Below are positions 1,044 through 13,073 of a DNA stretch of 64,000 bases, one piece after another. The DNA is from Deltaproteobacteria bacterium (GTDB lineage Bacteria; Myxococcota; Kuafuiibacteriia; Kuafuiibacteriales; Kuafuiibacteriaceae). Both the position numbers and the translations under genes were made by a program. Positions within the stretch are counted from its first letter, which is position 1, and every line of letters begins with the position of its first letter. The stretch is from assembly GCA_040218735.1 (NCBI GenBank), contig JAVJQW010000019.1:376850-440849 (forward strand). The letters run 5' to 3'. The notes beneath the pieces were generated by a model, which saw only the letters and a list, made by a program, of their open reading frames with translations, searched no databases and had not been told where the DNA came from.

Positions 1044-4715
<3,672 letters not shown>

Positions 4716-4860
4716 GAGAGGCCCATCGTAGGGTTGGGTTCGCTGTGAACGCCAGTCCTCGGCCGCCGGGTGCGCGCGGCCAACCGATGGGGGAATGTGC
4801 GGGCATGTCGGATTCGCCAGCGGACGTAAGGAACCGACGCCCGCGGCAACCCACCCTCCG

Positions 4861-5661
4861 ATGCAGCTCATGCGCTCGGTCGCCCTGGCGATCGCCTCGT
4901 TGGCGTTCGCGGGGCCCTCGTACGCCCAGGACGAACCGAAGGAGGGGGATCCGCCCTTCGCGCGGGTCGCCGACGACGAAGAGACGATCTACGCCGTCCA
5001 GCGCAAGGCGTTCTCGGTGGAGGACAAGCTCGAGCTGACGCCGTTCGTCGCCGCGACGTTCGCGGACCGCTTCGTCCAGAGCTTCGCGATCGCCGGGAGC
5101 CTCGGCTACCACCTCCGCGAGACGTTCGCGGTCGAAGTGTTCGGCAGCTACATGTTCCCGACCGAGTCCGGCCTCACGCGAGAGATCCTCGACCGCGGGA
5201 TGTTGCTCCCCGAGACCGCGAAGCTGACCCAGCTCCTGTGGGCGGCGGGCGCGGGCGTCAAGTTCAGCCCGCTGTACGGGAAGGTCCAAGTGATGGGCGC
5301 CGTGCTCGGCAACCTCGCCTTCTACGTCGGCGCGGGGTTCGCGATCGGCGAGTCACGGGTGCGGTGCACGTCGGGGCAGCGGCTCGACCCGGCGAAGTTC
5401 GGCGATCGCGTGTGCCCGATGCAGCCGAGCGTCGACGAGGAGGCGTACGAGCCGGCGACGCTCCGACCGCTCGGCGCGATCTCGGGCGGCGTGCGCTTCG
5501 ACCTGTCGGAGTGGCTCGCGATCGAGTTCGAGGTGAAGGACTACATCTACGTGGCGCGTGTCTTTCGGCCGGAGGTCGACGCGCCGACGCAGCGCTACAC
5601 GGACGCGGTGCGCAACGATCTGTTCGCGCAGCTCGGCGTGGGGATCTTGATGGGCCCGTAA
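4861..5661 (+). CDS. Outer-membrane beta-barrel protein, myxobacterial GltA/GltB/GltH-like family
   Basis: Signal peptide ending SYA-Q; IYAVQRKAF...LELTPF...GSLGYHL.E.FAVE; G.KFSPLYGK; GGVRF.LSEWLA..FEVKDYIY; C-terminal amphipathic strand. Start is 4861 or 4870. Confidence 0.75.
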   Translation: MQLMRSVALAIASLAFAGPSYAQDEPKEGDPPFARVADDEETIYAVQRKAFSVEDKLELTPFVAATFADRFVQSFAIAGSLGYHLRETFAVEVFGSYMFPTESGLTREILDRGMLLPETAKLTQLLWAAGAGVKFSPLYGKVQVMGAVLGNLAFYVGAGFAIGESRVRCTSGQRLDPAKFGDRVCPMQPSVDEEAYEPATLRPLGAISGGVRFDLSEWLAIEFEVKDYIYVARVFRPEVDAPTQRYTDAVRNDLFAQLGVGILMGP

Positions 5662-5665
5662 GCGG

Positions 5666-7798
5666 TTACAGCCCGTCGACGAGCGTGGGCTCGAGGAAGC
5701 GGGTCGGCACGGCGGTGACCTGCCCGAACCCGTTGGAGCCCCAGCATTCGAGGTGCCGATCGGTGCGAACGGCGCAGCTGTGGTCCGCACCGATCACGAA
5801 GTCGACGGTCGCACTCAAGTGCTCCACGCGGGTCGGACGCAGCTCGTCGCGGGCGTTACCGTTGGCGAGGTTGTGCGCCTCGTTCTGTCCCCAGCACGAC
5901 CACGCGCCGCTCCCGAGTCTCGCGCACGGGGAGTGCTGTTTACCGCGGATCTCGACGGCGCCCGAGAAGTCGTAGACGCGCTCGGGGGCCATGCGGTGGA
6001 TGCGGTTGTTCGAGCCGAGCGCGCCCTGTTCGTTGTTCCCCCAGCAGTACACGTCGCCGTTTTGGAGTCGGGCGCACGAGATGCTGCCGCCTGCGATCAC
6101 CTCCTCCGCGGGCCCCGGCAGTGGCACGGGAAGGTCGGGCGTCTCCCAGTGGTCTACGCCGAACAAGTAGGCACCGATACACACGACCGTGTCTTGGAGC
6201 GTCACGGCGCACACGTGATGATCGCCGAGGGCGAGCGCGCGGACCTGCCCGAGCTCGGGCACCGGCGTGACGCCCGCGAAGTAGCGACCCCAACACGTGA
6301 CCCAGCCTTCACGGTCGATCACGCAGCTCCGATCCCAGTTCGCGCGTAGCGCGATCGCGTCGGGCGCGTCGACGATCTCCACGGGCGCCCGAATCTCCGC
6401 GGGACCTCCGGGCAGCACTTGTCCCCAATCGTTCCTCCCCCAGCAGTGCACTCGGTTTTTGGGGTCGAGCGCGCAGGTGTGGTTGGCGCCGGCGGCGAAG
6501 TCGCGTGCCTCGTCCAGCTCCACGCGGACGGCGTGGCCGCCGACCAGCGGCGCCGCGGCCGACCCGAGCTGGCCGGAGGTGTTGTTTCCCCAGCACCACA
6601 ACCCGCCGGGCTCGTCGAGCGCGCAGGAGTGGGTGCTACCGACGTCGACCGCTTCGACGCGCGGCAGATCGAGGGGACGTGGAGTCGCGACGAGCGGGGA
6701 GATGTCGACGCCGAGCTGGCCGGACGCGGTCGAGCCCCAGCAACGAAGCCGACTGTCGTCGTCGAGGAGACACGCAAACGAATGACCGACCTCGATGCGC
6801 TTCGCTCCACTGAAACGAAGCGGCGTCGCGAGGTCCACGTGGTTCACGATCGCCCCCCAACAGACGACCTCGCCGTCCTCGAGCCGGGCGCAGGTCCACG
6901 ACGCTCCGGCGCGAATCTGAACGGCACGGCCCCCGAGATCCGGAACGTTCGCCCCGGCCGACGGGCCCCAGCACAGGACGCTCCCGCTCTCTCGTGTCAC
7001 GCAGGTGTGGTGGTAGCCGGCGGCGATCGAGGTCACGTCGGTGAGCCCCGTGTCGAACAGCTGCGTGCCGGGGAGCGGCGTCTGGGCGCCGAACATCCCG
7101 GCGGCGCCCTCGCCCCAGCAGTACACCCGCCCCTCGGCGACGGCGCAGGTGTGGTTGGAACCCATCGCGACCGCTTCGATCGGCCCCTCGATACGCGCGA
7201 AGTCGTCCGGGTGTCCCAGCTCCTGGCGGTCGTTGGTGCCGAAGCACCGAAGCTGCCCGTCTTCGAGCACGGCGCAGGTCGTCTCCTGTCCCGCGAACAG
7301 CCGGGTCACGCCGGTGAGGTCGCCGCTCGCGAGCTGGTCGTAGTCGTCGTTGCCCCAGCAGGTGAGCGTCCGGTCGCGGCGTACGACGCAGCAGTGACTC
7401 GAACCGCACGCGAGCTCGGTCGCGTCCTCGACGCCCGGGATAGAGTTCGGCGTGGCGACGATCGGGGTGGACGCGGGCGCGCCCGCCAGCCCCGCGACGT
7501 TCGCGCCCCAGCACTTCACGCGACCGCTCGGCTCGAGGACACACCCCGTGGTGTTGCCCAGCGCGACGTCGACGTACCGCGGGTGGCACATCCCGACGTA
7601 GCAGACGTCGCCGCGCTCGCAGTCGGCGTCGACGGCGCACTCCAACAAACAAGCGCCGGGGTCCCCGGGGGCCACGCAGATGTCGGTCTGACACACGAGC
7701 CCGTCGCCGCAGACACCGTCGCACGGCTCGCACAGGATCGGGTCGAGGCCGCGGCAGGCGAAGAGCGCGAAAGCGGCGAGCCCGACGAAGCGATTCAC
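5666..7798 (-). CDS. RCC1/BLIP-II repeat lipoprotein (14 repeats, probably two beta-propellers) with a Cys-rich N-terminal region
   Basis: Lipobox LFAC; 14 C(W/F/I)G-ending repeats, many preceded by GxxHxC; start overlaps the caspase stop (GTGA). Confidence 0.85.
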   Translation of the reverse strand: MNRFVGLAAFALFACRGLDPILCEPCDGVCGDGLVCQTDICVAPGDPGACLLECAVDADCERGDVCYVGMCHPRYVDVALGNTTGCVLEPSGRVKCWGANVAGLAGAPASTPIVATPNSIPGVEDATELACGSSHCCVVRRDRTLTCWGNDDYDQLASGDLTGVTRLFAGQETTCAVLEDGQLRCFGTNDRQELGHPDDFARIEGPIEAVAMGSNHTCAVAEGRVYCWGEGAAGMFGAQTPLPGTQLFDTGLTDVTSIAAGYHHTCVTRESGSVLCWGPSAGANVPDLGGRAVQIRAGASWTCARLEDGEVVCWGAIVNHVDLATPLRFSGAKRIEVGHSFACLLDDDSRLRCWGSTASGQLGVDISPLVATPRPLDLPRVEAVDVGSTHSCALDEPGGLWCWGNNTSGQLGSAAAPLVGGHAVRVELDEARDFAAGANHTCALDPKNRVHCWGRNDWGQVLPGGPAEIRAPVEIVDAPDAIALRANWDRSCVIDREGWVTCWGRYFAGVTPVPELGQVRALALGDHHVCAVTLQDTVVCIGAYLFGVDHWETPDLPVPLPGPAEEVIAGGSISCARLQNGDVYCWGNNEQGALGSNNRIHRMAPERVYDFSGAVEIRGKQHSPCARLGSGAWSCWGQNEAHNLANGNARDELRPTRVEHLSATVDFVIGADHSCAVRTDRHLECWGSNGFGQVTAVPTRFLEPTLVDGL

Positions 7799-9291
7799 GG
7801 CGCCGGCTCCGACGCGAAGATCTCGTTGGTGACGATCGCGCGGACCACGGCGACGATCAGCGCGGTCGCCCCGATCGACAGCGCCGTCACCGCACCGGCG
7901 CGCAGCGGGCCGACGCGCTGGCTCGCGTCGATCGCCTTCTGCGTGATGGGTCGCGCGTTGGCGTCGGCGGTGGCGTCCGCCGCCAGCATCGAGAGCACCG
8001 CGCCGCCCCCCGCGATCGCGAGGCCGGATCCGAGGAACGCCAGCGTCGTGTTGTCGTCGTACCAGGAGACGGCGGGTACGTAGGGCGCATCGAGGGTCGT
8101 CGACGTCGTCTGCAGGGCCATCGCTTCGACGCCTGCGACGAACTCCGGCGTCAGCGCTCTTTTGAATAGACTCCGCCGGAGCTCGTCCGCTATCGGCCCG
8201 CGCGACGCGAGTCGATCCGTCGCGTCCGCGAGCGGCGCGCCGAGGACGAGCCCATCGGGTCGCGGTTCGATCCGATGCACCGACCGCTCCGCGAACAGGT
8301 ACAGCTCGCGTTCGCGTTCACTCACCAGCGCGAGCGCCATGCCCGCGGGTTTGTTGGCGTCGAGCACGCGGCGCCCGGCGGCGTCCGAGATGTAGAAGTG
8401 GCCGGCCAGCTCGGCGTCGATGTGCAGGCGTCGCTCCGGTTCGACACCGCGGAGATCGACGAGCGAAGCCCCGCGTGTGTGCGGTCGGCGAACGAAGGGC
8501 TGGATGCGGACCTTGGCGTTGTCCACCTCGTGGTTCGCGGCGACGAGGTACCCCTGTACCTCCGCGTAGGTGACGATGCCGTCGCCGTCGACGTCGGCCG
8601 CGCCCTGCAGCGCGCCGAGCACCTGGTAGCTGAACACCCCGGCCTGGTAGCCGCTCCACTCTTGGACCTCCTCCTCGGCGCTCGTCGAGAGCAGGAAGCC
8701 GGTGTTCGGGTGACGCTCGAGGGTGTCCTCCGTGAGCGCCGCCGGGACGCGCTGTCCGCGTGAGCTCACGAGGAAGTACGAGTGACACGAGTCGATGATC
8801 ACGTGTTTGCGGTAGGCGGGGACCTTGCGCAGGACGAGCTCCGCGAGGTCGGTGCGCGAGAACGGCTCGTCGACGAGGTGCAGGTACGCCTCGGCGGCGG
8901 TCACCGTGCCGTGGCCGGAGAAGTAGAAGTACAGCTCCGGGTTGCGGTCCTCGACGACCTCCATCGCGCGCGTGACGTCTTCGAGCGCCGCCTCCAACGC
9001 CTCGCGCGTGGGGACGCGCGCGCGGTTGGCGCGATCGCCGAAGCGCACGGCGGTCTCCTGGTCGACCCCCGCGAGCAGGTAGACCTGGGTGCCGAGCCCT
9101 TCGAGGAAACTCGCGACGCGCATCGCGTCGTCGTCGGCGTAGCGGAGTCGTTCGTAGTCGCTGCCGGGGAGGGGGTGGTTGTTGCCGATGACGATCGCGA
9201 AGGACGGCGGACGGACGCCCGGAGGTCCCCACTGCACGAGCGGCGTCGAGGTCACGGTCGCCGTGGCGGCGAGCAGCAGCGCTCCGATCAT
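7795..9291 (-). CDS. Caspase family (peptidase C14) protein with signal peptide and C-terminal hydrophobic hairpin
   Basis: Start at MIGALLLAA (ATGA overlap with the upstream stop). FAIVIGNN, LRYADDDA, catalytic YFYFSGHG and IIDSCHS, QEWSGYQAGVFS, GAADVDGDGIVTYAE; two C-terminal hydrophobic segments. Confidence 0.9.
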   Translation of the reverse strand: MIGALLLAATATVTSTPLVQWGPPGVRPPSFAIVIGNNHPLPGSDYERLRYADDDAMRVASFLEGLGTQVYLLAGVDQETAVRFGDRANRARVPTREALEAALEDVTRAMEVVEDRNPELYFYFSGHGTVTAAEAYLHLVDEPFSRTDLAELVLRKVPAYRKHVIIDSCHSYFLVSSRGQRVPAALTEDTLERHPNTGFLLSTSAEEEVQEWSGYQAGVFSYQVLGALQGAADVDGDGIVTYAEVQGYLVAANHEVDNAKVRIQPFVRRPHTRGASLVDLRGVEPERRLHIDAELAGHFYISDAAGRRVLDANKPAGMALALVSERERELYLFAERSVHRIEPRPDGLVLGAPLADATDRLASRGPIADELRRSLFKRALTPEFVAGVEAMALQTTSTTLDAPYVPAVSWYDDNTTLAFLGSGLAIAGGGAVLSMLAADATADANARPITQKAIDASQRVGPLRAGAVTALSIGATALIVAVVRAIVTNEIFASEPAP

Positions 9292-10052
9292 GGCGCCTCC
9301 ACCCGGACGTCGAACACTTGCCGGTGTTCGAGGCGGTTCGGATCCTTCGCTTTCAGCGCCGCCGCGACCTCGGCGGGCGAGGCGTCGAACGCCGCGATGA
9401 TCCGTAGCGCGCCCGGTTGGTAGTCGTCGTCGACCTTGATGTCGAAGGGGAGGCGGACGCTCTTGGCGTCGGCGCCGCCGCGGATCACCTCCGCGGCGCC
9501 GTCGACCGACTCCGGGTAGTACCAGTGCACGCGTCGGCCGTCCCAGCCCGCGATCGTGAGGGTCCGGTGCGCGCCCTCGGTGTTGCCGTACTTGAAGCCG
9601 ATCTGTTCCCCGGGCCGAATCGTGTCGCCGGTGCGCAGGTCGCGTTTGCCGTCGGGGCCGATCGCCAGGAGCGCGACGTCCGCGGACCGAACCTCGGAGG
9701 CCCCCTTCGACCGCAGCTCGTCGCGCGGCGCGAAGACGAGCACGGCGGCGGTCGCGGCGGCGATCAGCGCGACGGTCGCTCCGCGGCGGGCCCAGTGTGC
9801 GGGCCGGCGTCGTCGTTTCGGCGCGGCGCCGTGGGCTTCGAGCAGCTCGCCGACGATCGCTGCGCACTCGGAGCAGCGCGCGATGTGGGCGCGCTCTTCG
9901 TCGGTGAGCGGTGCGCCGCCCTCCGCGATCAGCGCGAAGCGTTCGTCGGTGATGTGGCCGGCTTCGACGGAGTCCCCGAGCAACGCGTCGGCGTTGTGGG
10001 CCACGAAGGCCTCGAGCTCTTCCGCGGGGTCCTTCACTCGACGGATCATCAT
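9288..10052 (-). CDS. Zinc-binding (ZAS/zf-HC2) transmembrane anti-sigma factor with an extracytoplasmic DUF4384/ActD-like domain
   Basis: GH...HIARCSEC (HxxxCxxC); one TM segment (ATVALIAAATAAVLVFA); LRSKG motif; GDTIRPGEQIGFKY...DG...YYP...LP..I.VDD...G..RI.AAF...P; directly downstream of the ECF sigma with an ATGA overlap. Confidence 0.75.
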   Translation of the reverse strand: MMIRRVKDPAEELEAFVAHNADALLGDSVEAGHITDERFALIAEGGAPLTDEERAHIARCSECAAIVGELLEAHGAAPKRRRRPAHWARRGATVALIAAATAAVLVFAPRDELRSKGASEVRSADVALLAIGPDGKRDLRTGDTIRPGEQIGFKYGNTEGAHRTLTIAGWDGRRVHWYYPESVDGAAEVIRGGADAKSVRLPFDIKVDDDYQPGALRIIAAFDASPAEVAAALKAKDPNRLEHRQVFDVRVEAP

Positions 10053-10648
10053 AGCGCATCACCTCCAAGCTTCGCGGCGAGGCGGGCGAAGAGCCGCTTC
10101 TTCTTCATGCGGACGGCCGGCGCGCTGAGCGAGAGCACTTCGCCGACGACGGTCGTCGAGGCCTCCTGCTCGTACATCAGCTTGAGCATCACGCGGTCGT
10201 CGTCCGGCAGTCCGTCGAGCAGCGCGCGGACGGCCGTGACGCGCGCGGTGGTCAGGGTCGCTTCCTCGGGGTTCGGCGAGTCCGTCGGGAGCTCCTTCGC
10301 GGCGGTTTCGTCGATGGGTGCGTGAACACGACGTTCGATGCGCGCCGTCTGTCGGAAGAAGAACCGAATCGCGACGCTGTGCATCCAGGTCGTGAGGGCC
10401 GCGCGCCCCGAGTAAGTGGTGAGGACGCGGCAGTCGTCCTGGAGCAGGAACAGGTAGAACGACTGCAACAGGTCGTCGCGGTCCGGCCTCGACGCGGGGC
10501 GTTTCGTGATCGCGCGGCCCAGGCAGCTCATCACGATCCCCGCGGTGTCCTGTTTCAGGCGCTCGAAGGCCCCTTGCTCACCGCGGATGACGGCACGGAC
10601 GCGTGCCAGGTCATCTTCACGCTCGGGCACGTCGGGTCGAGGCGTCAC
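10049..10648 (-). CDS. RNA polymerase sigma-70 factor, ECF subfamily
   Basis: DDLARVRAVIRGEQGAFERL; DDLLQSFYL; YSGRAALTTWMHSVAIR (region 2); LDGLPDDDR...EVLSLSAPAVRMKKKR (region 4). Start uncertain (GTG at 10648 or 10630). Confidence 0.88.
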   Translation of the reverse strand: MTPRPDVPEREDDLARVRAVIRGEQGAFERLKQDTAGIVMSCLGRAITKRPASRPDRDDLLQSFYLFLLQDDCRVLTTYSGRAALTTWMHSVAIRFFFRQTARIERRVHAPIDETAAKELPTDSPNPEEATLTTARVTAVRALLDGLPDDDRVMLKLMYEQEASTTVVGEVLSLSAPAVRMKKKRLFARLAAKLGGDAL

Positions 10649-10740
10649 CCATGCGGTTCGGGGCGTCAATACGTTCACGTCTCGGGGGGTGAGAGACGGA
10701 CCGCCGCGCGACCGTAACGAAGAAAATGACGTGCCGATTC

Positions 10741-10920
10741 TCAGTGACAGTCGCGTTTGTTCGCGTTCTTCAGGCCGCGCTCGAGGCGTGAGCCCATCAC
10801 GACGTTCGCGGTCGGCTTCTTGCGGCGCGGCCACCCGGTGATCTTGTGGACCATGTACACAAACGCGAGCCCCGCGATGACAAGGGCGACGAGCTCCTGC
10901 ACCCAGGCGTCGCTGAACAT
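10741..10920 (-). CDS. Small FeoB-associated membrane protein (59 aa)
   Basis: ATG overlaps the feoB stop (TGATG); one N-terminal TM helix, basic tail, ends in CH. Confidence 0.65.
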   Translation of the reverse strand: MFSDAWVQELVALVIAGLAFVYMVHKITGWPRRKKPTANVVMGSRLERGLKNANKRDCH

Positions 10921-13073
10921 CACGTGAACCCGAGCAACTTCCCGCCCTGGTAGACGACGAGCGCGGCGACCCACGCGAGGACGTTCATGTAGACGAGCAT
11001 GAAGATCGGCCACTTCCAGGAGCTCGTCTCGCGTTTCACCACCGCGATGGTGCTCATGCACTGCGCGGCGAGGAGGAAGAAGATCATCAGCGACAGGCCG
11101 ACGAGTGGTGTGTGCTCCGCCGCGATGCGTTCGCGGAGCGTGGTGTTCTCTTCGTCCGCGTCCTCACCCGCGCCGTAGACGAGGCCCATCGTGGAGACGA
11201 AGACCTCGCGCGCTGCGAACGACGCGAGCAGACCGATGCCGATCTTCCAGTCGTAGCCGAGCGGCGCGATGATCGGCTCCATCGCGTGCCCGATGCGGCC
11301 CGCGTAGCTCGCGCCGAGGCGGTGCTCCTCCGCGCGCTGCTGGAGCCGTTCGAACGCGACCTCCGCCTTCTCGCGGACCTGCTCCTTCTGCTTCGGAGTC
11401 TGCGCGTAGGACATCGCAGTGTTCGTCGCGTCGCGGAGGCTGACCGCCTCCTGCGCGGGATCGAACTCACCGAGGTCCGGGTCGCGCGGGAAGTAGACGA
11501 GCGCCCACAGGACGATCGAGCAGGCGAGGATGATCGTGCCCGCGTCGCGGATGAACACCTTGCAGCGCTCGTAGACCTGGCGCGCGACGGAGCCGATCTC
11601 CGGCGCGCGATACGGCGGGAGCTCGAGCACGAGCGGGGGCGTCGGGCTCTTCAGGAGCGTGCGCTTGAAGACAAACGCGACCGCGACCGTGAACACGACC
11701 GACAGCACGTACATCGCCAGCATCAGCAGGCCGCCGAGCGAGAGGATGCCGAGCACCTTCTCGTCGGACGCGAAGAGCGCGCTGATGATGAGGATGTAGA
11801 CCGGGAGGCGCGCCGAGCAGGAGATCAGCGGCGTCACCAGGACCGTGACGAGGCGATCCTTCGGGGACTCGATGGAACGCGCCGCCATGATCGCCGGAAC
11901 CGCGCACGCGAAGCCGGACATCAGCGGCACGAACGCACGACCGTGCAGACCGATGCGGGCCATCAAGCGGTCCGAGATGAACGCCGCGCGGGCCAGGTAG
12001 CCGGAGTCTTCGAGGATCGCGATGAACAGGAACAGGATCCCGATCTGCGGGACGAAGACGATCACGTTGCCGACGCCGCCCACGACGCCGTCCACGAGCA
12101 GGTCGCGGATCGCACCTTCGGGGAGCGTGTCGGTGACGAAGCCCTGCGTCGCGCCGACCGCGCCTTCGATGAGATCCATCAGCGGCTCCGCCCAGGCGAA
12201 GATGCTCTGGAACACGATCGCCATGACGACCGCGAAGATCACGATGCCGAAGACGGGGTGCAGGAGGACGGCGTCGAGTTTGTCGCTCTTGGATTCGGCC
12301 GTGCGTTGGCTGCGATCGATCGAGGCCTCGGCGGCGGCGTTCGCGACTTCGTAGCGGCGCTCGATGATCGCTTCGGCGAGGTCGACGTGCGCGCGTGCGG
12401 CGTCGAGGAGCTTGGGGTCGACGGGGCTCTCGTCGTGCCGTGACGTCGCGGCGATCGACGTGATCGCCCACAGCGCGGTGCCTTCGTGGCCGGAGGCTTC
12501 GGTGACCTTCGCGAGGCGGGCTTCGGCTTCGTCGTCGAGGCGCCACTTGCGTTCATAGGTCGCGGGGAGGTCGGCGAGGGCGGCTTCGATCGTGCGGGTG
12601 AGGTCGTCGAGGCCTTCGCCGCGCTTCGCGACGATCGGGACGACCGGGACGCCGAGCTGCTCCGCGAGGCGCTTCGCGTCGACCGGGCGCCCGGCTTCGG
12701 AGGCGGCGTCGGTCATGTTCAACGCGACGACACACGGGGAGCCGAGCTCGAGGATCGACAACGCGAGGTAGAGGTTGCGGTCCAGGTTCGAGGCGTCGAC
12801 GACGATCACCGTGAGCGTCGGCGTGGGGTCGTCGGTGCGCCCGGTGATGACCTCGAAGGCGACGGCTTCGTCGCGGCTCTGCGCGGCGAGGGAGTAGGTG
12901 CCGGGGAGATCGATCAGCGTGACGTCGTCGCCGAAGTTCGCCTTCGCGAGGCGCCGCTCGACCGTGATGCCCGGGTAGTTGCCGACCCGCTGACGGAGGC
13001 CGGTGAGTTTGTTGAAGAGCGTCGTCTTGCCGGAGTTCGGGTTGCCGGCGAGCGCGACGAGGGCACCCGTCAC
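10920..13073 (-). CDS. feoB: Ferrous iron transport protein B
   Basis: G1 GNPNSGKT, NYPGITVE, DLPG, NMTD; membrane domain with LEDSGYLARAAF, GFACAVPAIMA, SCSARLPVY, FAAREV. Confidence 0.97.
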   Translation of the reverse strand: MTGALVALAGNPNSGKTTLFNKLTGLRQRVGNYPGITVERRLAKANFGDDVTLIDLPGTYSLAAQSRDEAVAFEVITGRTDDPTPTLTVIVVDASNLDRNLYLALSILELGSPCVVALNMTDAASEAGRPVDAKRLAEQLGVPVVPIVAKRGEGLDDLTRTIEAALADLPATYERKWRLDDEAEARLAKVTEASGHEGTALWAITSIAATSRHDESPVDPKLLDAARAHVDLAEAIIERRYEVANAAAEASIDRSQRTAESKSDKLDAVLLHPVFGIVIFAVVMAIVFQSIFAWAEPLMDLIEGAVGATQGFVTDTLPEGAIRDLLVDGVVGGVGNVIVFVPQIGILFLFIAILEDSGYLARAAFISDRLMARIGLHGRAFVPLMSGFACAVPAIMAARSIESPKDRLVTVLVTPLISCSARLPVYILIISALFASDEKVLGILSLGGLLMLAMYVLSVVFTVAVAFVFKRTLLKSPTPPLVLELPPYRAPEIGSVARQVYERCKVFIRDAGTIILACSIVLWALVYFPRDPDLGEFDPAQEAVSLRDATNTAMSYAQTPKQKEQVREKAEVAFERLQQRAEEHRLGASYAGRIGHAMEPIIAPLGYDWKIGIGLLASFAAREVFVSTMGLVYGAGEDADEENTTLRERIAAEHTPLVGLSLMIFFLLAAQCMSTIAVVKRETSSWKWPIFMLVYMNVLAWVAALVVYQGGKLLGFT

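Follow-up and report, generated by a model that had tools for sequence, protein, structure and literature searches.

Caspase-linked sigma/anti-sigma cassettes in a Myxococcota genome: a candidate protease-gated signalling system of the cell envelope

Extracytoplasmic function (ECF) sigma factors constitute a major route of bacterial signalling, and for most of their groups the activating step is obscure. Bacterial metacaspases are abundant, and for almost none of them a substrate is known. In the classical cases of regulated intramembrane proteolysis, anti-sigma factors are degraded stepwise, with DegS and RseP acting on RseA and PrsW and RasP acting on RsiW. Here, we analysed a stretch of 64,000 nucleotides (the 'window') from a bacterium of the phylum Myxococcota (assembly GCA_040218735.1, contig JAVJQW010000019.1, positions 376,850-440,849), in which an operon at positions 5666..10648 encodes an ECF-type sigma factor, an anti-sigma factor, a C14 (metacaspase-like) protease and a lipoprotein with RCC1 repeats. 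This cassette joins both problems, with one protease and one invariant site. An earlier note, made from the sequence of the window alone, had read the operon as a candidate signalling system in which the caspase-like protease acts as the dedicated site-1 protease of the anti-sigma factor.

The genomic association as such is in print. According to Asplund-Samuelsson et al. (2012, PMC3501461), four of the five metacaspases of Myxococcus xanthus DK1622 are encoded in operons with sigma factors, and the same arrangement occurs in Anaeromyxobacter, Haliangium, Sorangium, Ralstonia and Fibrobacter. The operon in the window represents the same association. That study is confined to co-occurrence, and the anti-sigma factor, the topology, a cleavage motif, an EF-hand, the variable fourth gene and a mechanism do not appear in it. 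The closest mechanistic precedent is M. xanthus DdvA, in which the truncated anti-sigma factor is degraded via RseP and a caspase-like self-cleavage in the linker was proposed as the site-1 step (PMC11506125). Like the system in the window, DdvS/DdvA combine an ECF sigma factor with a single-pass zinc-type anti-sigma factor, a periplasmic His/Cys module of the caspase superfamily and a flexible juxtamembrane linker, for which a cut followed by RseP was proposed. In DdvA, however, a TPR-CHAT module is fused to the anti-sigma factor (~900 residues) and acts in trans within the dimer, whereas the window encodes a separate C14 protein with its own anchor and an EF-hand, an anti-sigma factor with a small immunoglobulin (Ig)-like sandwich as ectodomain and a variable lipoprotein. 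Since the anti-sigma factor in the window (254 amino acids) carries no fused CHAT domain and the protease is a separate gene, we do not assign the system to the DdvA family. DdvA regulates an island with CBASS (cyclic oligonucleotide-based antiphage signalling system) and CRISPR genes, while no defence genes were seen next to the operon in the window.

Caspase-family proteases that control sigma factors are also part of CRISPR-linked circuits, which the earlier note had mentioned and which are indeed published: in the type III-E Craspase, Csx29 cuts Csx30 and thereby releases an ECF-like sigma factor (PMC10028731), and a type III-B circuit of Haliangium consists of SAVED-CHAT, PCaspase and PCc-sigma/PCi (bioRxiv 10.1101/2023.06.23.546230). 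As in the logic proposed for the window, proteolysis by a caspase-family enzyme controls a sigma factor in these circuits, and the Haliangium protease is itself activated by cleavage. The circuits are cytoplasmic, triggered by RNA or cyclic oligoadenylate and encoded beside cas genes, whereas the system in the window is predicted to be periplasmic, stands alone and occurs in many paralogous copies. Among positions 1-21,000 of the window, we saw no cas, cyclase, SAVED or other defence genes beside the operon, and PADLOC returned a weak caspase match (E 5.7e-5) and nothing else. As such neighbours are absent, we do not count the system among the CRISPR-linked kind. It probably works like DdvA and the CRISPR-linked circuits.

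A full-text literature search returned no paper in which the action of a metacaspase on an anti-sigma factor was tested. One review mentions CHAT-domain proteins in connection with group ECF54 (PMC8999054). The ECF re-classification of Casas-Pastor 2021 names no caspase, C14 or CHAT in its main text and no caspase in the accessible part of its supplement, the rest of which may describe such a context. The earlier note knew of no worked-out mechanism, in agreement with this search, but the operon association had been published in 2012 (PMC3501461), and self-cleavage had been proposed for DdvA (PMC11506125). We regard the cassette as real and conserved; it would be a variation on regulated anti-sigma proteolysis and not a system of a new kind. 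It would follow the classical logic, in which a periplasmic site-1 cut precedes an M50 site-2 protease; its site-1 enzyme would be a caspase-fold cysteine protease private to each pair, whereas the classical systems employ a shared serine or metalloprotease.

The four genes lie adjacent on the minus strand of the window, to which all coordinates of the operon refer, and follow each other in the order sigma factor, anti-sigma factor, caspase, lipoprotein. Open reading frames (ORFs) and junction sequences bear out the four co-directional genes with 4-base overlaps described before: the sigma and anti-sigma genes overlap at 10049-10052 (ctATGAtg), the anti-sigma and caspase genes at 9288-9291 (ccATGAtc) and the caspase and RCC1 genes at 7795-7798 (ccGTGAat).

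The first three of these genes stay together far beyond the window. A hidden Markov model (HMM) of the caspase found 18 places in the source genome (11.6 Mb in 70 contigs), 17 of which have a match to an ECF sigma factor on the same strand 0.55-1.7 kb upstream, a spacing that leaves room for one gene of ~250 amino acids. As the regions within 4 kb of one of its 109 sigma matches make up only ~8% of the genome, the arrangement occurs far beyond chance. The ectodomain of the anti-sigma factor behaves alike: its HMM matched 14 places in the genome, and every one of the 13 matches with E<=1.7e-13 is linked to a caspase gene (12 adjacent, one 5 kb away in a rearranged cluster). In the phylum, the caspase family (E<=1e-20) is present in 237 of 301 sampled genomes, a tally that includes one unpublished genome. 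We compiled 36 caspase loci, six via a 3-sequence alignment and 30 via genome search; 35 of them come from other genomes of the phylum and one from the source genome itself. Sigma and anti-sigma genes adjoin the caspase gene in 32 of them (28 upstream and co-directional, 4 divergent). The expectation of the earlier note that the triad is conserved was hence confirmed.

Distance matrices of caspases and ectodomains are correlated (r 0.78; none of 2000 permutations reached this value), while nearest neighbours agree between the two trees in 20 of 36 cases, indicating a co-divergence that is real, yet not clean. We conclude from this that modules duplicate and diverge as units, although linkage alone would give the same result. 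Taken together, sigma factor, anti-sigma factor and caspase form, very probably, one functional unit.

What could the caspase do in such a unit? New in this respect are two sets of features: an [RK][GS] site in the stalk of all aligned anti-sigma factors, and a dyad, metacaspase-type acidic residues, an EF-hand and an [RK]G loop in all aligned caspases.

The anti-sigma factor (9288..10052, 254 amino acids) was examined with an alignment of 42 sequences of the family and an AlphaFold2 model built from these 42 relatives, with a mean predicted local distance difference test (pLDDT) value of 84.4. Translation and model bear out the HxxxCxxC motif and the single transmembrane segment reported before. 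The motif (H56, C60, C63; 9864..9887) falls in cytoplasmic helices (residues 36-75), and the membrane helix at residues ~87-108 (9729..9794; model helix 87-107) coincides with the hydrophobic run ATVALIAAATAAVLVFA. Pfam zf-HC2 (PF13490) matches 16 of the 42 relatives but not the protein in the window at E<=0.1, and three paralogues of the genome (D, F and H) have no motif Cys residues. By its motif, the anti-sigma factor appears to be of the zinc-binding type (ZAS, class I), with binding of zinc and of the sigma factor as predictions.

Behind the membrane helix follows a stalk (residues 109-118) that is predicted to be disordered (pLDDT <50). It contains the sequence L113-R-S-K116-G117 (9702..9716), in which we propose the site-1 cut after K116. 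A basic residue followed by Gly or Ser occurs at this place in all 42 aligned anti-sigma factors (R in 34, K in 8; then G in 33, S in 9), at a median distance of 7 residues from the hydrophobic segment and with a hydrophobic residue three positions before [RK], which is F in 22 of 42. The same alignment has a mean column identity of 20% and not a single strictly invariant column. The sequences thus suggest that [RK][GS] is a near-invariant periplasmic feature of the anti-sigma factor, and it would fit a protease with specificity for basic residues.

The periplasmic ectodomain that follows the stalk (residues 122-254; 9291..9689) is an Ig-like beta-sandwich modelled with pLDDT >90. The earlier note had called it DUF4384-like. 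The confident sandwich past the membrane helix is there, but the label is weak: Pfam gave no match to the anti-sigma factor of the window at E<=0.1, including PF14326 (DUF4384), CHAT and TPR, and two of the 42 aligned relatives match PF14326, at best with E 2.6e-4 and 21.4 bits, which falls short of the cut-off (27). Foldseek against the PDB returned generic sandwiches only (RhoGDI, CARDB; template modelling (TM) score by query <=0.30). In a structure search of the Atlas, the ectodomain reached a TM score of 0.78 to a Myxococcota cluster in which 43% of the members carry PF14326, and its neighbours were clusters of Myxococcota, Fibrobacterota and Acidobacteriota that partly carry PF14326 and zf-HC2. 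'Distantly DUF4384-like' is hence a fair, though weak, description. A word-indexed homologue search with the anti-sigma profile yielded nine proteins, all nameless and with uninformative Pfam annotation.

The protease (7795..9291, 498 amino acids) matches PF00656 (E 3.6e-12, 46.9 bits, cut-off 21.4). Its model (pLDDT 86.7, predicted TM score 0.75) comprises, in this order, the caspase domain (residues 30-256), a beta-sandwich (266-354; 8230..8496), two helices and a C-terminal hairpin. The nearest solved folds found by Foldseek are the yeast metacaspase Yca1 (4f6p, E 4.7e-9), a Candida metacaspase, TbMCA2 and the caspase-Ig3 region of MALT1, to which the alignments are long, in line with the modelled strands of the sandwich. 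The intact C14 dyad noted previously is present as H127 and C169 (SGH127G, DSC169H; 8785..8913), with D167 two residues before the Cys. H127, C169, D55, D167 and G179 are invariant in all 41 aligned caspases. The family profile aligns YADDDA, which holds D55, with CVND of Arabidopsis metacaspase-4 (6w8s), and DSCHS with the DSCHS of that enzyme. We take D55 and D167 to correspond to the acidic S1 residues in the structure of TbMCA2, to which metacaspases owe their specificity for Arg/Lys. Judged by these motifs, the pocket would be of the Arg/Lys-specific metacaspase kind.

Nine residues past the catalytic Cys, the caspases share a second basic-Gly pair, R178-G179 in the window (8755..8760), with Arg at position 178 in 37 of the 41 sequences and Lys in the other four. 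It is a candidate autoprocessing site at the start of a loop; its place corresponds approximately to the cut between the subunits of animal caspases, and the loop is modelled with low confidence (residues 171-190, mean pLDDT 74 and 56 in its two blocks). The pattern hydrophobic, any residue, small, [RK], G is common to this loop and the site in the anti-sigma stalk.

The caspase domain furthermore contains a canonical EF-hand loop, D233-x-D-x-D-G-x-V-x-x-x-E244 (8560..8595), flanked by helices 219-231 and 242-253 in the model. Across the 41 caspases, position 1 is D and position 12 is E in every sequence, position 3 is D/N/S and position 5 D/N in all of them, position 6 is G in 35 and position 8 V/I in 40. 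The family profile also matches EF-hand proteins in the PDB, with 2jnx at E 1.6e-6. In fold and sequence, the calcium-dependent metacaspases Yca1 (4f6p), the Candida glabrata enzyme (7qp1), TbMCA2 (4af8) and AtMC4 (6w8s) come closest to the caspase of the window and resemble it in the His/Cys dyad and the acidic pocket residues; they are soluble, cytoplasmic and eukaryotic, and their calcium site is not known to be an EF-hand, whereas the caspase of the window is predicted to be exported and membrane-anchored, with a built-in EF-hand loop of 12 residues.

A cut of the anti-sigma stalk requires both partners in one compartment, as the earlier note had assumed, and paralogue signal peptides and both models bear this out as a prediction. 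The caspase begins with a hydrophobic segment (residues 1-21; 9229..9291), which we regard as an export segment by eye and from the paralogues: all 12 aligned paralogues of the genome open with a hydrophobic stretch that leads straight into the first caspase strand, and in J, M and N it is a classical signal peptide with an AxA site. At the other end, the two-helix membrane hairpin described before (residues 414-488; 7828..8052) is reproduced by the model (helices 414-444 and 451-488), and its short connection holds R, K and R. From the N-terminal segment, whether cleaved or not, and this hairpin we conclude that the caspase domain would face the periplasm, where the model also predicts the ectodomain of the anti-sigma factor to be located.

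In paralogues K (L024:1158-3317, minus strand), M (L026:4479-6092, plus strand) and N (L027:4437-6002, plus strand), the hairpin is replaced by a long beta-rich tail that ends with F or L. Such an end suggests an outer-membrane (barrel) anchor, again with a periplasmic caspase domain, so that one genome holds inner-membrane-tethered and, probably, outer-membrane-tethered forms of the cassette. A fusion of anti-sigma factor and caspase in paralogue K was rejected, since its stretch of 719 amino acids resolves into two genes that are read in different frames.

The sigma factor (10049..10648, ~199 amino acids from GTG 10648) passes NCBIfam TIGR02937 (sigma70-ECF) with 47.6 bits at a cut-off of 42.9, and an HMM from the caspase-linked sigma paralogues of the genome matches it at E 4.8e-50. 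As Pfam Sigma70_r4 stays below its cut-off (21.5 bits) and region 2 is undetected by Pfam, we count it, by its sequence, as a divergent member of the ECF sigma factors (group 4). Its cognate anti-sigma factor is co-encoded with the overlap of four bases given above. The reading frame is open as far as 10834, where its upstream part overlaps an ORF of 60 amino acids ending at 10741, which makes GTG 10648 a plausible start. With an HMM from 12 caspase-linked sigma factors, the genome contains 109 ECF-type matches, of which 84 have E<=1e-10. A caspase gene is wired to 17 of the 109, about one in six.

The fourth gene (5666..7798) encodes a lipoprotein of 710 amino acids whose 14 RCC1 repeats, as counted before, are evident from matches to PF25390 (317.5 bits, cut-off 150), PF13540 (263.5 bits, 12 stretches) and PF00415 as well as from 14 C[WFI]G marks at intervals of 37-51 residues. 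Its putative lipobox, MNRFVGLAAFALFAC15, was assigned by eye, and relatives show LAGC, LTGC or GGC there. Cys15 and the Cys-rich N-terminal module behind it (LCEPCDGVCGDGLVCQTDIC ...; 7586..7756) are kept in the clade to which the window belongs: in the caspase tree, it falls into a group of eight loci (SH-aLRT, an approximate likelihood ratio test, 100), and in all eight the fourth gene has a lipobox, then a Cys-rich module (LCxPCxxxCxxGLxCxxGxC) and then RCC1 (5) or Kelch (3) repeats. A search of the source genome with the Cys-rich module gave three matches (E<=2.3e-4), all directly behind caspases of this clade. The module together with the exchange of RCC1 for Kelch fits, on the level of sequence, a constant docking piece with an exchangeable propeller.

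While the triad stays, the fourth gene varies, as the earlier note had asked. RCC1 repeats are found in loci L029, L032, L033 and L043, Kelch repeats in L030, L031 and locus B of the source genome, fn3 repeats in six loci, TSP3 and PepSY in two each, and other loci have no known family; among the paralogues of the genome, locus F has FG-GAP/TIG and locus D an ASH-type Ig domain. Most downstream fourth genes have lipoprotein-like starts. That the lipoprotein is the sensor rather than cargo of the operon seems doubtful to us, albeit conceivable.

We propose that the caspase cuts the anti-sigma factor as a dedicated site-1 protease, namely a calcium-dependent, Arg/Lys-specific metacaspase of the periplasm. 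We infer this from motifs, folds and topology, and rate it as tentative, at slightly below an even chance. Of the corresponding claim in the earlier note, a plausible site ([RK][GS] in 42 of 42, within a disordered linker) and a metacaspase-type pocket were found, the cut itself being a prediction. At rest, the ECF sigma factor would be held at the inner membrane by the single-pass zinc-type anti-sigma factor, whose Ig-like ectodomain would sit on a short disordered stalk, with the exported metacaspase tethered to the same membrane by its C-terminal hairpin. An input, possibly calcium or the state of the propeller lipoprotein, whose Cys-rich N-terminal module may dock on the module, would first raise the protease activity; contact, attack and prey, the triggers suggested in the earlier note, are guesses. 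The protease would then open its own [RK]-G loop and, in a third step, cut the anti-sigma factor after the juxtamembrane Arg/Lys (K116-G117). The remaining stump would pass to an RseP-type site-2 protease and then to cytoplasmic proteases, and the freed sigma factor would transcribe its targets, probably including its own operon. M50 site-2 protease homologues (PF02163) are encoded in the source genome, the best with E 5.3e-65 in a frame of 580 amino acids.

A more far-reaching version, which we consider possible but rather doubtful, is a private repertoire of trans-envelope receptors, 17 in this genome, in each of which a swappable lipoprotein gates a calcium-dependent metacaspase that opens its own [RK]-G loop and clips the cognate anti-sigma factor at [RK]-[GS]. 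Proximity- and self-cleavage-based activation of caspases in animal and plant immunity would then have a bacterial counterpart in the periplasm, and caspase-gated receptors would serve ordinary signal transduction, possibly in sensing prey, kin or surfaces. Should the proposed mechanism hold, a bacterial metacaspase would have its physiological substrate, site-1 proteases would gain a new class, and the cassettes would constitute a set of naturally orthogonal protease-gated switches.

Several observations weigh against this proposal. The [RK][GS] pair could be structural, for instance a positive residue at the membrane surface and a turn before the first strand, and with ~8 residues from the membrane helix, the site is closer to the membrane than known site-1 cuts. 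The [RK]G loop of the caspase may serve folding rather than processing. The N-terminal segment of the caspase in the window contains no K/R, and its export is therefore deduced from the paralogues and inspection by eye; of the signal peptide claimed in the earlier note, the hydrophobic segment thus stood, while its typical basic residues are missing. No in-frame start was found further upstream near the gene. Autoregulation is an assumption, as the promoter search found none. Conserved synteny would equally be expected of a dedicated regulon of a sigma factor and its cargo. Nor is the synteny complete: among the 36 loci, sigma and anti-sigma genes are divergent from the caspase gene in four, three (one of them locus B of the source genome) have no sigma or anti-sigma gene within 1.5 kb, and one, cut by the end of a contig, shows the anti-sigma gene only. 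Divergent pairs were seen in L034, L052, L059, L062 and L066, from which it follows that translational coupling is not obligatory for the association.

The best surviving alternative, which we nevertheless deem unlikely, is that the sigma/anti-sigma pair senses another envelope cue and that caspase and lipoprotein are merely the genes switched on, with no feedback on the anti-sigma factor, their products forming a periplasmic protease/propeller pair that matures or degrades proteins of the envelope, of prey or of competitors. ECF operons often carry their own output genes, the fourth genes (RCC1, Kelch, fn3, TSP3, PepSY, FG-GAP) resemble a repertoire of effectors or adhesins, the caspase fold matches metacaspases with broad substrate ranges, and cleavage of the anti-sigma factor is something we infer. 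But a mere cargo gene would hardly be expected to remain tied to one ectodomain family, as is the case for 13 of 14 ectodomains linked to a caspase and 17 of 18 caspases with a private sigma factor. The variable element is the fourth gene and not the caspase, and the sole near-invariant periplasmic feature of the anti-sigma factor is a basic-Gly site that fits the type of protease. Hence, the wiring of one sigma factor to one caspase, the exclusive pairing with the ectodomain and the variable fourth gene argue against plain cargo, and even if the caspase were cargo, this strict wiring would still need explaining.

Could the caspase instead bind the anti-sigma factor without cutting it? The ectodomain might restrain the caspase, or the caspase might shield the ectodomain as RseB shields RseA, so that a signal would separate the pair and any cleavage of the anti-sigma factor would be left to another site-1 protease. 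The co-divergence of caspase and ectodomain (r 0.78) would fit such a specific protein pair. DUF4384-type domains recur with caspase domains and occur fused to them; the Atlas search showed only clusters with DUF4384 and zf-HC2. In the CRISPR-linked circuit of Haliangium, the small protein PCi not only serves PCaspase as substrate but also inhibits it (bioRxiv 10.1101/2023.06.23.546230). However, all 41 caspases retain the dyad, the S1 residues and the EF-hand without exception, which points to a working enzyme and not a scaffold, the module contains no further conserved protease gene, and ectodomain and caspase sandwich have no profile similarity that would suggest pairing. We find this alternative improbable, though less so than the next one. 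Homology of the ectodomain to the sandwich domain of the caspase was rejected (hhalign probability 1.4).

Finally, the caspase might be an executioner in the periplasm that calcium triggers once phage, predator or toxin has breached the envelope, with the anti-sigma cut as a side branch adding a transcriptional response as in the CRISPR-linked circuits. We consider this very improbable: the EF-hand in 41 of 41 caspases, the weak PADLOC match (E 5.7e-5), the precedents of DdvA/DdvS, which regulates a defence island, and PCaspase, and one paralogous module 1 kb from an SpvB/TcdB-type gene would suit it, but defence genes were not seen beside the operon, PADLOC gave no further matches, and 17 parallel copies, each with a different lipoprotein, resemble a set of receptors rather than one alarm.

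Two paralogous loci of the source genome deserve a separate description. Locus B (L015:2158-11413) is rearranged, with the sigma gene 1.7 kb upstream of the caspase gene and the anti-sigma gene ~5 kb downstream. A frame with NAD-binding/epimerase matches overlaps its sigma gene and is possibly no real gene, and a gene for an Rce1/CPBP-type membrane protease (3809-4402; PF02517, E 2.8e-10) precedes the caspase gene. The locus also encodes a Kelch/Big lipoprotein of ~1,340 amino acids from an MKR start, with its stop at 9988, in an open frame of 1438 amino acids. In locus G (L020:7015-10986, plus strand), a protein with SpvB, TcdB_toxin_midN and FG-GAP matches is encoded ~1 kb downstream of another sigma/anti-sigma/caspase module.

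In the window, which has ~70% G+C, the operon is preceded by an intergenic region of 92 bases (10649..10740, minus strand) between the stop of the 60-amino-acid ORF (10741) and GTG 10648, which we presume to contain the promoter. A sigma-70 consensus scan of 5400-11000 gave no promoter, comparison of the upstream regions of eight related sigma genes by eye gave no common motif, and a terminator scan gave weak sites only, within coding sequence. The orthologue from the same genus sits at the start of a contig. With this gap upstream and a convergent ORF downstream, we regard the four genes as a self-contained unit.

The neighbours of the operon within positions 1-21,000 include genes for FeoB, an SLT transglycosylase, Ig-like secreted proteins, a PDZ protein and cytochrome-like proteins. 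The feoB gene (PF02421, E 8e-55) lies upstream of the operon on the same strand, directly followed by the ORF of 60 amino acids (10741-10923, minus strand), which encodes one hydrophobic segment and a basic C-terminus (...RDCH) and has no Pfam match; it appears to resemble the small FeoB-associated membrane proteins. The convergent ORF downstream (4795-5661, plus strand, 288 amino acids) ends four bases from the stop codon of the RCC1 gene at 5666. It has no Pfam family and a signal-peptide-like start, and its composition leads us to guess that it may be an outer-membrane protein. The frame 1044-4871 (minus strand) encodes a secreted protein of 1275 amino acids with ASH/HYDIN-type Ig domains, the C-terminal third of which is extremely rich in Gly (GGxGG repeats); this run explains both the 78.6% G+C at positions 1001-2000 and the numerous spurious Arg-rich ORFs of that region.

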